In this document: one piece after another, positions 28,792 to 50,928 of the stretch
Position numbering within the stretch: the first letter of the stretch is position 1
Layout of the letters: every line of letters begins with the position of its first letter
Origin: Pedosphaera sp.
Lineage (GTDB): Bacteria > Verrucomicrobiota > Verrucomicrobiia > Limisphaerales > JADLHS01
NCBI GenBank assembly: GCA_009695195.1
Contig: SIBJ01000001.1
Span: forward strand, 53,581 to 117,580
Reading direction: 5' to 3'
Length of the DNA stretch: 64,000 bases
Translations under genes and position numbers: made by a program
The notes under the pieces: model-generated
Database searches by the model: none
Seen by the model: only the letters and a program-made list of their open reading frames with translations
Told to the model about the DNA's origin: nothing

Positions 28792-28873
28792 GCGTGTTGC
28801 GTGTTACGTGTTGCGTCAAGCAGCGAGGACGCCAACCGCAATACTTGACGCAACACGCAATACACAACACGCC
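28792..28873. repeat. Hairpin repeat, family E (CGTGTTGCGTGTT..GTGTTGCGTCAAG arms)
   Basis: GCGTGTTGCGTGTTACGTGTTGCGTCAAG ... CTTGACGCAACACGCAATACACAACACGC. A second copy lies at 34045-34116. Confidence 0.65.
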
Positions 28874-47018: not shown

Positions 47019-47056
47019 AAACATTTCACGCATCACGCATCACGCACCACGTTAAC

Positions 47057-48499
47057 ATGCCGCAAGAGTTCAAACTCATCCTCAAGCACCTCGATAACCC
47101 GGGTTACACGCCGGACATCGAATGCTATTTGCGACACGGCGGCTACGACGCGCTCAAAAAAGCACTCGCCATCCAGCCCAAGGATTTGCCCGACGGCAAG
47201 AAAGCATCGCCACAGGAACAGATTCGCGACGACGTGAAGCTTTCCGGCCTGCGCGGTCGCGGCGGCGCGGGTTTTTCGTGCGGACTCAAGTGGAGTTTCG
47301 TGGATCGCCGCAGCGGCAAACCGATTTATCTCATCTGCAACGCCGACGAATCCGAGCCGGGCACGTTCAAAGATCGCCAGATCATCCACAAAGACCCGCA
47401 TCAACTCATCGAGGGCATGATTGTCTCGTGCTTCGCGAACGACGTGAAGCTCGCCTACATCTACATCCGTGGCGAAATGCCCAAGGGCGCGAAGCTGCTG
47501 AACGCGGCGTTGAAGGAAGCTCGCGCGAAAAATTTCCTCGGCAAAAACATTTTGGGCAGCGGTTACGATTTGGAGATTCACGTTCATCGCGGCGCGGGTG
47601 CTTACATCTGCGGCGAGGAAACCGGCCTCATCGAATCGCTCGAAGGCAAGCGACCGTATCCGCGCATCAAGCCGCCGTATTTTCCCGCGGTGCTCGGGCT
47701 TTACATGTGCCCGACCATCGTCAACAACGTCGAGACGCTCTGCAACGTGAAGCACATCGTCACGATGGGCGGCCCGGAATTCGCGAAGCTCGGCACGCCG
47801 AACAACACCGGCACACGCATCGTGAGTTTGAGCGGCCAGGTGAAACGCCCCGGCTACTACGAGATCGAAGTCGGTAAAGCCACCATCGGCCAGCTTATCA
47901 ACGATCCCGCGTTCGGCGGCGGCTTGCTTGATGGAAGAAAACTTAAAGCGGTCATCCCCGGCGGTTCATCCTCAAAAGTTTTGAAGGCAGGCGAGAAATT
48001 CAAACTCAAGCGCAAGATCGAAGGCAAAGATGTCGAAGTGGAAACCGACATGCTTGATCTGCCGTATGATTTCGATTCGCTCCAGCAAGCGGGCACAATG
48101 AGCGGTTCGAGCGCGATCATCGTGATTGATGACAGCGTGGACATCGTCGGCGCGCTGGCGAATCTCTCCGAGTTTTACGCCCACGAAAGCTGCGGCCAAT
48201 GCACGCCGTGCCGTGAAGGCTCGCTCTGGATGAGCAAGACGCTGCATCGCCTCACGCACGGTGAAGGCCGCAAACAGGACGCGGATTATCTCGTGAAGAT
48301 CGCCGACAACATTCCCGGCGGTAAGACGATCTGCGCGTTCGGCGAAGCCTGCTCGTGGCCGGTGCAAAGTTTCGTCGCGAAGTTCAAAGATGAATTCGTT
48401 GCCAAAGGCGCAGCCGATGAAGAACGTCGCGCGAAAGAAAAAGTTCAACCAAAAATTGCCACGCCAGCGGAGCGAAAAGAATTAACGACCGCACATTAG
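47057..48499 (+). CDS. nuoF: NADH-quinone oxidoreductase subunit F
   Basis: GLRGRGGAGFS.G.KW (FMN/NADH site) and ESCGQCTPCREG (N3 cluster). Confidence 0.92.
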   Translation: MPQEFKLILKHLDNPGYTPDIECYLRHGGYDALKKALAIQPKDLPDGKKASPQEQIRDDVKLSGLRGRGGAGFSCGLKWSFVDRRSGKPIYLICNADESEPGTFKDRQIIHKDPHQLIEGMIVSCFANDVKLAYIYIRGEMPKGAKLLNAALKEARAKNFLGKNILGSGYDLEIHVHRGAGAYICGEETGLIESLEGKRPYPRIKPPYFPAVLGLYMCPTIVNNVETLCNVKHIVTMGGPEFAKLGTPNNTGTRIVSLSGQVKRPGYYEIEVGKATIGQLINDPAFGGGLLDGRKLKAVIPGGSSSKVLKAGEKFKLKRKIEGKDVEVETDMLDLPYDFDSLQQAGTMSGSSAIIVIDDSVDIVGALANLSEFYAHESCGQCTPCREGSLWMSKTLHRLTHGEGRKQDADYLVKIADNIPGGKTICAFGEACSWPVQSFVAKFKDEFVAKGAADEERRAKEKVQPKIATPAERKELTTAH

Positions 48500-48504
48500 A
48501 AATC

Positions 48505-48810
48505 ATGCCCAAGCTTTACGAATACTTCGGATTGATCGTGTTCTTCTACACCAATGAACATGAGCCGATTCACGTTCATGGCGAGTTTCAGAACGGCCAC
48601 GCCAAGGCGGAATTCTTTTTGAAAGAAGGCAACATCGTGCGGATTGTGTTCTCGAACGTGAACGGCAAACGCCCATTGCCGGGATACAAAATGAAGGATT
48701 TCAGAACCTTGGTGAACGCCAAAGCCGACGATATCGTCCGGCGTTGGATTGAATACTTTGTGTTCAAGAAACACAACAAGCCGGAAATCATTACCCGAAA
48801 AATCAAATGA
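48505..48810 (+). CDS. DUF4160 domain protein
   Basis: MPKLYEYFGLIVFFYTNEHEPIHVHGEFQNGHAKAEF matches my recollection of the DUF4160 N-terminal signature (xHxPxHxH). It starts 5 nt after the nuoF stop. The region looks AT-richer by eye. Confidence 0.8.
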   Translation: MPKLYEYFGLIVFFYTNEHEPIHVHGEFQNGHAKAEFFLKEGNIVRIVFSNVNGKRPLPGYKMKDFRTLVNAKADDIVRRWIEYFVFKKHNKPEIITRKIK

Positions 48811-49199
48811 AAGCGCTGGCGACAAAATATTTGGAAATCGTCCAAGCCGGATACGTTTCCGGCTACAAGATTCGATTGACGTTCAATGATGGGCTGGTTC
48901 GCGTCATGGACTTCGAGCCGTTTTTGCGCAAAGCCCTGAACCCCGACATCACAAAATACCGGCAATTTCGGAACTTCAAAAAATTCCATCTGCACTACGG
49001 TGATTTGATGTGGGGAGATTTCGATATGATTTTTCCGATAACGGATTTGCATCGCGGGAACATTCTCAAAGGGGAGGAAGCCGCTCTGTCTCACTTTGTG
49101 TTGAACGACACTGCCGCTCCGGCCAAACCAATTTCGGACAGGAAAACCAAAATTGTTTCTTACCAAAATGTGAAACGGAAAAAAGTTTTGCATGGCTGA
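48807..49199 (+). CDS. DUF2442 domain protein
   Basis: VSGYKIRLTFNDGLVRVMDFEPFL is the DUF2442-type beta motif. It has an ATGA overlap with the DUF4160 gene, which is the usual pairing, and its stop overlaps the nuoG start by 8 nt. Confidence 0.7.
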   Translation: MKALATKYLEIVQAGYVSGYKIRLTFNDGLVRVMDFEPFLRKALNPDITKYRQFRNFKKFHLHYGDLMWGDFDMIFPITDLHRGNILKGEEAALSHFVLNDTAAPAKPISDRKTKIVSYQNVKRKKVLHG

Positions 49200-50928
49200 C
49201 GCAACAACAACCGAAGTCAAGCCCGCGCCGCCTGCGATCGAAAAGATCAAGGTCAAGGTGGACGGGCGCGAAGTCGAAGTGCCGAAGCTCACGCCGGATT
49301 GGCAGGGCAAACTCGCGCCCACCACGATGCTGCAGGCGTGCGACATCGCGAAGAAGGATGTCCCGCATTATTGCTATCACCCGAAGCTGCCCGTCGCCGG
49401 TAATTGTCGCATGTGTCTCGTCGAGTTTGGCACGCCCGCACTCGGGCCGGATCGCAAGCCGGTGATGAATCCCGACGGCACGCCAAAGATTGCGAAGTCG
49501 CCGCGTCCGGCCATCGGTTGCGCCACGCCGATTTCGCCGGGAATGGAAATTTACACGAGCACTCCGGGCGTGAAGCAGATGCGCGAGGGCGTGCTCGAAT
49601 CGCTGCTCATCAATCATCCGCTCGATTGCCCGATCTGCGACCAAGCCGGCGAATGCAAGCTCCAGGAATATTCCGTGGACTACGGCCAGAGCGCGAGCCG
49701 TTTCGTTGAGGCAAAGGTTCACAAGCCCAAGGCCGTTGATCTCGGGCCGCGCATCATGCTCGACGCCGAGCGTTGCATTCTGTGCACGCGCTGCATCCGC
49801 TTCACAAAGGATGTCGCAGGCGACGACGCGCTGGGCATCGTGAATCGCGGCAGTTACAACACGATTGCGACGTTCCCCGGCCTGCCGTTCGACAACAACT
49901 ACACGCTCAACACCGTGGACATCTGTCCCGTCGGCGCGCTGACGTCGAAGGATTTTCGTTTCCAGATGCGTGTGTGGTTTCTCAAGGAAACTAAAAGCGT
50001 CTGCACGAGTTGCGCGACGGGTTGCAACGTCCTCATCAGCTCGCGCGAGGAAAAGATTTACCGCTACACGCCACGCGACAACGACGCCGTCAACGGTCCG
50101 TGGATGTGCGATGCGGGACGACTCAATTATAAGTGGATTCAACGCGAAGATCGGTTGAAGGATGTTTTAGTGGGGCAGGCTTCCAGCCTGCCTGTTTCAA
50201 AGTCCGGGCAGGCTGGAAGCTTGCCCCACTACAAATCTTCGTGGACTGCGGCACTCTCGGAAATTGCGGAGAAGCTCAAGCAAGCTCCGGCGGGTTCGGT
50301 GGCGATTGTTGTCTCGGCCTGCCAAACGAACGAAGAGCTTTGGCTGATCAGCAAACTCAAGGCGAAACTCGGTGCGATCAGTGATTCCGTCGAGCGCACA
50401 GGTGATGCCGACAAGTTGCTCGTCAGCGCTGACAAGAATCCCAACACAAACGGCGCGCGGCTCACCGGAATTTGCTTCAGCGAAATGGGAATCAACCTGC
50501 CCAAGATCGCGGACGGCATCGCGAGCGGAAAGATTAAGAGCCTCATCGTTTTCGGCGAAGACGTGACGAAGCACGGCATCAGCGCGGAATTGCTCGGCAA
50601 GCTGGACACGCTCATCGTCAGCGACATTTTGCCGAACGCCACAACGGCAGCCGCGCATTACGTTTTGCCTGGTTGCGCACACGCCGAGAAGCGCGGTTCG
50701 TTCACGAACACCAAAGGTCGTGTGCAAAAGTTCATGCAAGCCGTCCAGCCGCCCGGCGACGCCCGCGCCGAATGGGATTTTCTGCACGACTTGGTTTACA
50801 ACGTCACCGGCAAGAACGGTTTCCTGACCATCGAAGGTCTGTTCAACGAGATGGCGAAGGATGTTCCGGCGTTCAACGGTTTGACGTGGGCCAGCCTCAG
50901 TGACACGGGCGTGACGGTGAAGATTTGA
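49192..50928 (+). CDS. nuoG: NADH-quinone oxidoreductase subunit G
   Basis: N-terminal 2Fe-2S and 4Fe-4S motifs (CYHPKLPVAGNCRMCLVE, HPLDCPICDQAGECKLQ, CILCTRCIRF), then a molybdopterin-like domain. Confidence 0.9.
   Translation: MADATTTEVKPAPPAIEKIKVKVDGREVEVPKLTPDWQGKLAPTTMLQACDIAKKDVPHYCYHPKLPVAGNCRMCLVEFGTPALGPDRKPVMNPDGTPKIAKSPRPAIGCATPISPGMEIYTSTPGVKQMREGVLESLLINHPLDCPICDQAGECKLQEYSVDYGQSASRFVEAKVHKPKAVDLGPRIMLDAERCILCTRCIRFTKDVAGDDALGIVNRGSYNTIATFPGLPFDNNYTLNTVDICPVGALTSKDFRFQMRVWFLKETKSVCTSCATGCNVLISSREEKIYRYTPRDNDAVNGPWMCDAGRLNYKWIQREDRLKDVLVGQASSLPVSKSGQAGSLPHYKSSWTAALSEIAEKLKQAPAGSVAIVVSACQTNEELWLISKLKAKLGAISDSVERTGDADKLLVSADKNPNTNGARLTGICFSEMGINLPKIADGIASGKIKSLIVFGEDVTKHGISAELLGKLDTLIVSDILPNATTAAAHYVLPGCAHAEKRGSFTNTKGRVQKFMQAVQPPGDARAEWDFLHDLVYNVTGKNGFLTIEGLFNEMAKDVPAFNGLTWASLSDTGVTVKI
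50170..50229. repeat. Hairpin repeat, family N, inserted in frame within nuoG
   Basis: GTGGGGCAGGCTTCCAGCCTGCC-N14-GGCAGGCTGGAAGCTTGCCCCAC has 23-nt arms with one mismatch. It is 60 nt long, which is 20 codons (VGQASSLPVSKSGQAGSLPH). Confidence 0.7.

Follow-up and report, generated by a model that had tools for sequence, protein, structure and literature searches.

Repetitive extragenic palindromes (REPs) of the GTAG-tagged superfamily combine an unpaired GT[AG]G tag with a stem-loop, are frequently found as inverted dimers and fall into sub-families with covarying stems; in the verrucomicrobium Opitutus terrae there are about 70 in-frame inserts of such REPs, mostly dimers, that encode about 15-30 amino acids (Di Nocera, De Gregorio, Rocco 2013, BMC Genomics 14:522, PMC3733652). 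Here we consider a similar element in a 64-kb stretch of DNA (the window, by which we mean the whole stretch analyzed) from a metagenome-assembled genome (MAG) of Pedosphaera sp., where a 60-nt hairpin at 50170-50229 lies within nuoG, the gene for a subunit of NADH:quinone oxidoreductase (complex I). Quite probably, it is a REP doublet of the superfamily linked to REP-associated tyrosine transposases (RAYTs), recently inserted in frame in a tolerant turn of NuoG. It shares with the O. terrae REPs the phylum Verrucomicrobiota, the tagged stem-loop, the inverted dimer and the in-frame location in a housekeeping gene; its tag is GTGG, the form to which GTAG degenerates in one O. terrae family (PMC3733652). 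The stem (GGCAGGCT/AGCCTGCC) is likened to those REPs by design and was not matched to a numbered family. This kind of event has already been described in the same phylum, and the core of the original prediction made from the window sequence, a REP inserted in frame, lineage-specific and tolerated, is right. Less ordinary, as judged from metagenomic fragments and a neighbor-joining (NJ) tree, would be the repeated independent occupation of one codon, the resemblance of the empty site to the REP head, and arms that change more slowly than neutral sites and in a strand-symmetric way; the O. terrae list does not contain nuoG by name and reports neither recurrent use of one codon across lineages nor intragenic arms that evolve more slowly than neutral sites (PMC3733652).

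In REPINs, two inverted REPs form one long hairpin (Bertels & Rainey 2011, PMC3116915), and a long persistence of REPIN-RAYT systems, in which single-copy RAYTs are bracketed by repeats, has been argued for the Proteobacteria (PMC3116915; PMC5581495; bioRxiv 10.1101/2021.07.10.451892). The REPINs described in these papers are extragenic and proteobacterial, with no mention of intragenic copies or of the Planctomycetes-Verrucomicrobia-Chlamydiae (PVC) phyla, whereas the present one is intragenic and from a PVC phylum. Its two inverted REPs likewise form a single long hairpin, the six PVC RAYT loci presented below are bracketed in the same way, and the conserved arms found here are consistent with long persistence. 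In Escherichia coli, a Y1/HUH protein (TnpA-REP) reportedly recognizes GT[AG]G next to an imperfect palindrome, according to work of Messing et al. (PDB 4ER8) and of Ton-Hoang et al., both of 2012. The E. coli REPs and bacterial interspersed mosaic elements (BIMEs) resemble the window element in this tetranucleotide beside an imperfect palindrome, with a different sequence, and to our knowledge the REPs are strictly extragenic. The Rickettsia palindromic elements (RPEs) are said, since Ogata et al. (2000, Science 290:347), to lie in frame in essential genes and to be tolerated at surface-exposed segments; we know of no dedicated transposase for them. Like the window element, they are palindromic selfish repeats that add a peptide loop to an essential gene product, but they are longer (about 100-150 bp for RPE-1, against 60 nt here) and show no sequence similarity to it. 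Membership in an RPE family was rejected on the tag, which is GTGG and not CGTC, and on the length of 60 nt, and the likeness is functional only; RPE-4/6 have been assigned to CGTC-tagged families, and RPEs overall to this class or to unrelated families (PMC3733652).

The hairpin was originally described as two 23-nt arms with one mismatch around 14 nt, and direct reading, a repeat finder and RNA folding all agree with this (Table 1). According to the repeat finder, the arms can be lengthened to 28 nt with 93% complementarity (50165-50192 / 50207-50234), TTTTA in the left flank and TACAA in the right one lengthening it beyond the REP arms. Each arm is itself palindromic (GGCAGGCT-TCC-AGCCTGCC) behind its GTGG tag, so that the element is a doublet of two small hairpins; the units conform to the stem of 5-13 bp, loop of 2-20 nt and unpaired GTAG/GTRG end of tagged REPs (Di Nocera 2013; Nunvar 2010), and in their inverted arrangement, with 23-nt arms, they form the single long hairpin typical of a REPIN. 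Folding of the mRNA, which the original prediction had proposed as a check, yielded -61.4 kcal/mol compared with -29.0 +/- 3.3 for dinucleotide shuffles (z = -9.95), and 0 of 200 shuffles were equally stable. The single arm mismatch is C/T and reads as G.U on the sense RNA. The element begins precisely at codon 327, and V327-H346 (VGQASSLPVSKSGQAGSLPH) is followed by Y347, K348 and the conserved SSWTAAL.

To place this insertion among its relatives, we used a sample of 120 protein homologues and 80 metagenomic nuoG loci, with divergence computed after masking the insert site. The approximately 30 nearest orthologues, at 3.8-9% amino acid divergence, have V-R-G-Q-K where the window has V-GQASSLPVSKSGQAGSLPHY-K; the alignment thus bears out the claim that the insertion is lineage-specific. 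Within 9% divergence (about 33 sequences) the sole filled allele besides that of the window is P0002/L203. The two closest empty alleles, L201 and L202, read GTT TTG GTG CGC GGG CAG AAA (the empty site being GTTTTGGTGCGCGGGCAGAAATC) and the window allele reads GTT TTA GTG GGG CAG GCT ... CCC CAC TAC AAA, with 20 residues (GQASSLPVSKSGQAGSLPHY) in place of three (RGQ). An insert of exactly 20 codons in frame had been proposed; the 60 nt do correspond to V327-H346, but the net gain over the empty alleles is 17 codons, or 51 nt. At the junction nine host nucleotides are replaced, there is an extra TAC and no target site is duplicated; the TAC codon appears to have been brought in or created by the insertion event itself. 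L203, which is 8.5% divergent, has the same stem sub-family as the window with another junction and an unrelated spacer, implying two independent events in an otherwise empty clade. Moreover, four coordinated stem positions and the whole spacer set the window copy apart from the other copies of type A. On these comparisons the REP insertion in the window nuoG appears to be a recent, lineage-specific gain.

The host protein has the N-terminal 2Fe-2S/4Fe-4S domains, the molybdopterin-like domain and the N7-type CxxCxxxC...C motif of NuoG/Nqo3. An identical 578-aa protein is recorded in NCBI and ENA entries as NuoG-type ("MAG: Pedosphaera sp."), Pfam recognizes NADH-G_4Fe-4S_3, Fer4_Nqo3, Molybdop_Fe4S4 and Molybdopterin in this public protein, and complex I 75-kDa/Nqo3 chains in the PDB match the window NuoG with E values down to 7e-85. 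When an empty allele is used as query, the invariant C271/C274/C278/C306 align to C256/C259/C263/C291 of Thermus thermophilus Nqo3, which we take to be the ligands of cluster N7. The insert site aligns with residues ~313-319 of the same chain (PLVR-KEGRLVE-ATW); the PDB homologues align confidently as far as the insert, and exactly there all five displayed PDB alignments have a length difference of 2-4 residues. A predicted AlphaFold2 (AF2) structure, read for its local topology, has a strand at 325-328, coil over the insert (pLDDT <50), a strand at 346-349 and a helix at 351-363. By homology with molybdopterin enzymes, the site would be a beta-hairpin that has GQ at its turn and is the first one to follow the N7-type 4Fe-4S motif. 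The insert is probably tolerated because a loop placed at a turn has adjacent ends; the added loop would be solvent-exposed and its effect on complex I near neutral. The surface linker of the original prediction therefore needs some amendment: the site does lie directly before SWTAAL, as was claimed, and is tolerant of indels, but it is the tip of a beta-hairpin and not a free inter-domain linker.

The arm (GGCAGGCTKSMAGCCTGCC) is widespread in other genomes, in line with the predicted REP-type palindrome: in a scan with one genome per species, the exact 23-mer occurs in at least 120 genome stretches, and the reverse complement of REP unit 1 is an exact match to this family 23-mer. Among the matches listed, Planctomycetota and Verrucomicrobiota predominate, and further carriers belong to the Kiritimatiellota (the isolate Pontiella sulfatireligans F21), Acidobacteriota, Myxococcota, Methylomirabilota and Nitrospinota; a complete chromosome, that of Phycisphaerales ac7, also carries it, and in the MAGs JACOUH01 and JANNGQ01 there are at least 12 loci each. 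The generic form G[AG]CAGGC-N3-7-GCCTG[CT]C is represented by 202 units in 787 kb of the listed stretches, where 39 of 59 close pairs are head-out doublets (GTGG...CCAC) with the same layout as in the window, mostly with spacers of 6-14 nt. Two stem sub-families, GCAGGC...GCCTGC and ACAGGC...GCCTGT, differ in both stem halves in concert, and GTAG heads are present in related nuoG-site copies. By sequence and by architecture, inverted pairing and covarying stems included, the window element is a member of the GT[AG]G-tagged superfamily.

In most sampled genomes the spacer varies from copy to copy (within JACOUH01, for example), and the conserved unit looks to be the single REP, not the doublet. 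The exception is JANNGQ01, where five doublets (L006, L082, L108, L109, L111) have a conserved spacer of ~37 nt (TTGTCGATTCAAAAACAC...TTTTTTCAAGTCCA) and a conserved 3' flank (AAGGAATCG), which suggests that there the doublet replicates as a unit. The window spacer, TGT-TTCAAAGTCCG, resembles both ends of this 37-nt spacer, a likeness that is only a lead; an exact twin was not found in the DNA examined. No gene family recurrently adjoins the repeat in 120 loci, no target or flank motif is shared among the copies, whose flanks are TA...TA, C...G or unrelated, and a full-text literature search gave no match to the arm strings. Spread between phyla by a viral vector was judged unlikely, the arm being present in only 2 of 2.9 million viral contigs. 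Several PVC-type REP copies are also found in MAGs labelled "uncultured Klebsiella sp." (L002, L084, L106; one copy within a polyketide synthase (PKS) gene) and "Akkermansia muciniphila" (L018, L085, L089, L112), and both labels look doubtful.

The notion that intragenic, in-frame copies are rare did not hold up for this family, since of 147 elements in the sampled loci, 53 are inside frames that stay open for 80 codons or more to either side, and some 70 O. terrae cases had already been catalogued (PMC3733652). At least 8 of the 10 largest REP-bearing frames are real genes, with Pfam domains flanking or spanning the repeat; the genes concerned encode Tex, class II ribonucleotide reductase (RNR), GyrB, PKS, peptidase U32, DUF7133 and planctomycete PSCyt/PSD proteins. 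For example, a REP unit lies between the ATPase and transducer domains of DNA gyrase B (L072:3134-5191(-), aa 262-268), another splits the YqgF-like domain of Tex (L090:4812-7991(+), aa 454-460) and a third is in frame within the polyketide synthase (L084:2-4879(-), aa 1343-1349).

The E. coli RayT as query found one relative in the DNA examined, at L021:4825-5502 in JANNGQ01, a planctomycete MAG that has the exact arm too. This protein of 225 aa has HUH (HYH) and YxxxNPV motifs, matches E. coli RayT (BLASTP) and PDB 4ER8 over the HUH and catalytic-Tyr motifs, and scores 79.9 bits (E 1.7e-22) against NCBIfam NF047646, "REP-associated tyrosine transposase", for which the cutoff is 80; Pfam did not recognize it. 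Its family has 438 members at E <= 1e-5. GTGG-tagged hairpins lie on both sides of this gene, and five more readable RAYT loci, all bracketed by hairpins on both sides, bring the total to six distinct PVC RAYT loci (REPtrons). The bracketing hairpins are of the type GTGG[GA]GCACGTT...AACGTGC in L206/7 and L214, and GTGGGGCAGGT...ACCTGCCC in L209/10, L211 and L212; the GTGGGGCAGGT type and the window arm are identical in their first 10 nt (GTGGGGCAGGTCGCCGACCTGCCC). RAYT/REPtron systems with this head and architecture thus appear to exist in these phyla. Besides the REP-flanked loci reported, no RAYT was found in 1.38 Mb of examined DNA, and the two viral contigs with the arm have none. In a Gemmataceae MAG (L212:1-2705) a type I restriction-modification operon has the RAYT with its flanking REPs in its midst, hsdR on one side and hsdM on the other, the P0232 locus being listed alongside; this hsdR/hsdM neighborhood is probably why one source labels many RAYTs of the L021 family "type I restriction enzyme R subunit".

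The window's codon in nuoG is by no means occupied only once. REP-type inserts are present there in 60 of the 200 orthologues, in at least eight sequence/junction types, among them V|GQASSLS..GQAGSLxH; RKV|GQASSLS..GQAGSPPYF; R[DEN]V|GQASRLS..ETGATPVLR, in which the second arm has a different loop; types that end in ..TGRMPVL or ..TGKMPVL; a single REP (GQAGSPSHY); and an apparently nested type with the peptide VARASRP (P0055), which is a peptide listed for O. terrae GTAG-19 (PMC3733652). In P0055 (591 aa) the insert, ARASRPFVAGDQPKQPGGVARATTEQIGSLPHE at residues ~328-360, seems to be a REP doublet of another family nested in the remnant of a GQAGSLPH-type element, as judged from the protein only. 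Relatives 3-6% apart bear different insert types, and Fitch parsimony on the NJ tree gives at least 24 changes between filled and unfilled states with an unfilled root, a figure that leans toward the upper side given a noisy tree built on metagenomic fragments. V-R-G-Q-K is found unfilled in the distant outgroups L186, L189, L190 and L194 also; this, together with the lack of a route back from filled alleles by simple deletion, makes gains the better interpretation. Over 534 kb of nuo-operon loci there are 22 genuine REP units, in 12 loci, and all of them are at this nuoG site.

The NuoG turn of more distant orthologues accommodates imperfect tandem arrays of heptanucleotides, (AAGTCCA)n, (AAGTCCG)n, (AAGTCGG)n, (GTGCGGA)n or (TGCGGAA)n, located at ~3.9-4.0 kb in loci with 3-kb flanks (L160, L185, L181, L171, L138, L166, L167, L178, L184). 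They translate as VQSPKSKVQS, KCGVRSAECGVR and the like; the unit varies by lineage and the 7-nt period is constant. Their presence at the REP codon indicates that the nuoG site takes in unrelated repeat DNA too. A second REP site in NuoG, suspected in 581-aa alleles with an empty first site, was rejected: it is an ordinary protein-like indel of 20 residues (e.g. LLMNSVKSDKLRDKELTSEV) after residue ~440 of the 561-aa form (P0035, P0099, P0106, L121, L129 and others) and is not repeat-derived. The O. terrae list includes a single GTAG-18 REP, VGPALAAG, that spans residues 331-338 of Oter_0480, a "ferredoxin" of 628 aa (PMC3733652, Additional file 3), numerically near the 327-347 of the window; if Oter_0480 is a NuoG, the hot spot reaches the Opitutales.

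The explanation that we favor would run as follows. A doublet of GT[AG]G-tagged REPs, a superfamily thought to be mobilized by RAYT (HUH/Y1) transposases and presumably so in this case, would have entered nuoG recently, in the lineage of a Pedosphaera-like verrucomicrobium. Its place of entry, V-R-G-Q-K, would be the tip of a short beta-hairpin that comes shortly after the N7-type 4Fe-4S motif and immediately precedes the SWTAAL helix, a point where the ends of the loop would be adjacent and where the whole protein superfamily seems to tolerate changes in length. Because the element is GC-rich, free of stops in five of its six frames and adds a multiple of three nucleotides (+51), NuoG would still be made, with a flexible loop of 20 residues rich in G, S, Q, A and P. 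The empty host site, GTG(CGC)GGGCAG, resembles the REP head GTGGGGCAGGC (GTG GGG CAG GC) and may act as a targeting cue; such head mimicry, along with structural tolerance, is the likely reason why the same codon has been hit repeatedly, and always in the same frame, in related lineages.

Several observations weigh against this explanation. The 64-kb window contains no RAYT, nor does it contain a second copy of the 19-nt arm core at up to three mismatches (0.02 chance matches expected). The search for the cognate RAYT yielded six REPtrons, all with hairpins of sister types (GGCAGGT, GGCACGT) and none with the exact GGCAGGCT-TCC-AGCCTGCC type. The insertion junction is unlike the seamless cut-and-paste expected of IS200/IS605-like enzymes, and the AF2 model of the window NuoG, with a mean pLDDT of 42, is of use for local topology only and not for a comparison of folds. 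Finally, REP arms at inherited sites evolve more slowly than neutral sites, which a neutral passenger alone does not explain.

This last point follows from inherited inserts, recognized by the same junction codons and a related spacer. In the pair L143 and L150 the arms differ at 2 of 57 nt compared with 40% of four-fold degenerate sites (P about 1e-10), and the inserts of L156, L157 and L158 differ at 5-9 of 66 nt compared with 40-50% of such sites. Two Verrucomicrobiota MAGs share a single REP unit (AGTGGGGCAGGCTTCCAGCCTGCC, peptide SGAGFQPA) at the same barrel-domain position, ~685, of class II RNR (L113:2470-5637(-) and L080:164-3313(+)); it is identical at 24 of 24 nt against a 46% difference at four-fold sites. 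The constraint on the REP arms appears to operate on the nucleotides and not on the peptide. It shows no preference for either strand: over 12 nuoG-site elements the summed fold is -542 kcal/mol for the sense and -552 for the antisense orientation, with balanced counts of G.U pairs. A strand-symmetric constraint fits REPs that act as DNA, whether by recognition by a RAYT or another factor, by homogenization or by repeated re-homing. One could go further and regard the NuoG turn as a sequence-targeted landing pad, to which doublets would home repeatedly because its DNA mimics the REP head, and in which the arms are held nearly invariant by DNA-level constraint while synonymous sites saturate. 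Taken with the identical 23-mer found in several phyla, this would point to a conserved factor and a DNA-level function, or else to re-homogenization by RAYTs, with essential genes serving as refuges for the repeats; we consider this a possibility, albeit a doubtful one.

Slow arm evolution also means that divergence does not reveal age, and so lends something to the idea of a single ancient insertion in the ancestor of a verrucomicrobial clade, after which the allele would often have been lost and its arms and spacers replaced in place, the window copy being inherited. All 60 REP-bearing alleles share the frame of arm 1 (VGQAS...) and, to within one codon, the position, and in the close relatives P0046 and P0105 the conversion of a doublet into a single unit testifies to remodelling in place. 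Such a history is unlikely, however, in the light of the unfilled outgroups mentioned above and of the type-A alleles, in which the CGC codon is absent so that simple deletion cannot restore the empty state; the window copy, moreover, is nested among about 30 empty alleles, with stems and a spacer of its own, and L203 combines the same stem sub-family with a different junction and spacer.

The original prediction had further suggested that the RNA hairpin could affect translation or mRNA stability. In this form, the element would be kept in the nuo mRNA either to pause translation at a domain boundary or as an internal stabilizer or processing site that tunes the ratio of upstream to downstream subunits, and the very stable hairpin (-61 kcal/mol), the sole arm mismatch that becomes G.U on the sense strand, the many lineages with hairpins at this codon and the conservation of REP arms far beyond neutral expectation could all be cited in its favor. 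We nevertheless hold it to be distinctly unlikely. The strand symmetry of folding and of G.U counts argues against a selected mRNA hairpin, as the sense strand is not the more stable one; approximately half of the orthologues, the closest ones included, have no hairpin here, and others have heptamer arrays that do not fold (-4 to -15 kcal/mol). The single REP in the RNR gene is equally conserved, which ties the conservation to the repeat family as such rather than to nuoG. We rejected membership in a known RNA family, for Rfam 15 gave nothing at gathering score over the element region, the best matches being generic hairpins, namely miRNA-precursor models with 39 bits versus a threshold of 94, on both strands. 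The possibility of a -1 frameshift or ribosome hopping was dropped, there being no slippery site, in-frame stop or supporting evidence.

We see very little chance that the element is a conventional miniature inverted-repeat transposable element (MITE) derived from a DDE-type insertion sequence, with terminal inverted repeats and a target duplication and unrelated to RAYTs. It is short, non-autonomous and palindromic, and in the window and some other copies it has TA on both sides (TA|GTGGGG...CCCCAC|TA); but comparison of filled and empty alleles uncovers no target duplication, only nine replaced nucleotides and the extra TAC, other copies are not regularly flanked by TA and often have C...G instead, each arm is an autonomous GT[AG]G-tagged stem-loop with covarying stems, the signature of a REP, and closely similar hairpins bracket RAYT genes. 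That the hairpin arose in assembly or binning is conceivable for a MAG, in which repeats can produce chimeric joins, but this is hardly credible for an intact reading frame with homologous sequence on either side, an identical protein in NCBI and ENA entries, analogous inserts at this codon in dozens of independent assemblies and an arm that isolates and complete genomes carry as well.

For annotation, the 20-residue "GQASSLP...GQAGSLPH" stretch should be regarded as repeat-derived and not as a functional motif. A recent REP insertion of the sort that we favor is a case of selfish palindromic DNA written into a core subunit of complex I without destroying the protein, and sheds light on the origin of loops in proteins. 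More interesting is the wider pattern, in which different REP doublets would have occupied one nuoG codon independently in many Verrucomicrobiota lineages and intragenic arms evolve several-fold more slowly than neutral sites of the same genes. Should complete genomes bear it out, this pattern would provide a natural test bed for the target choice of REPs and for the selective maintenance of REP/RAYT systems that has been argued for Proteobacteria; on both points the PVC phyla have barely been examined.

Table 1. Coordinates of the REP doublet, its host gene and other features of the window
Feature	Position	Strand	Remarks
nuoG, short 578-aa NuoG/Nqo3-type subunit of NADH:quinone oxidoreductase	49192..50928	+	ORF list, translation, Pfam, PDB
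Host left flank GTT TTA	50164..50169	+	With GTG, equivalent to GTT TTG GTG of the empty alleles
REP doublet (REPIN-like), two inverted GTGG-tagged REP units, heads outward	50170..50229	.	In frame, encodes V327-H346
REP unit 1 = arm 1, GTGGGGCAGGCTTCCAGCCTGCC	50170-50192	+	Direct sequence reading
Unit 1, GTGG tag	50170-50173
Unit 1, stem GGCAGGCT	50174-50181
Unit 1, loop TCC	50182-50184
Unit 1, stem AGCCTGCC	50185-50192
Spacer TGTTTCAAAGTCCG, 14 nt	50193-50206	+	Between the REP units; loop of the long hairpin
REP unit 2 (inverted) = arm 2, GGCAGGCTGGAAGCTTGCCCCAC	50207-50229	-	One mismatch to consensus
Unit 2, stem GGCAGGCT	50207-50214
Unit 2, loop GGA	50215-50217
Unit 2, stem AGCTTGCC	50218-50225		One C>T
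Unit 2, tag CCAC	50226-50229
Junction codon TAC (Y347)	50230..50232	+	Neither host nor REP; from DNA alignment with empty alleles L201, L202
nuoF	47057-48499
DUF4160 and DUF2442, nuoF-nuoG gap	48505-49199		Pfam E 3e-8, 3e-6
Tandem arrays	14769-14797/14840-14899
Tandem arrays	34046-34069/34099-34118
Tandem arrays	44032-44058/44076-44102
Tandem arrays	54510-54537/54710-54740
Tandem array	28792-28816
Tandem array	47026-47051

The gene order around the host gene is nuoB-C-D-E-F-(two small genes)-G-H-I-J. The small cassette between nuoF and nuoG differs between close relatives: where the window has the DUF4160 and DUF2442 genes, L201:179-705 and L202:9470-9996 have an Unstab_antitox (PF09720) protein and a 98-aa ORF, and L203:2288-2701 has one ORF of 137 aa. 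These cassettes resemble toxin-antitoxin-like pairs that are exchanged within an essential operon. The window is also rich in short tandem arrays of heptamers and octamers; several have an inverted partner at a distance of 20-170 nt, such as AAGCACC x4 versus GGAGCTT x9 or ACGCAAAG versus CTTTGCGC, and a TCACGCA x3.7 array is located just 5' of the nuoF start.

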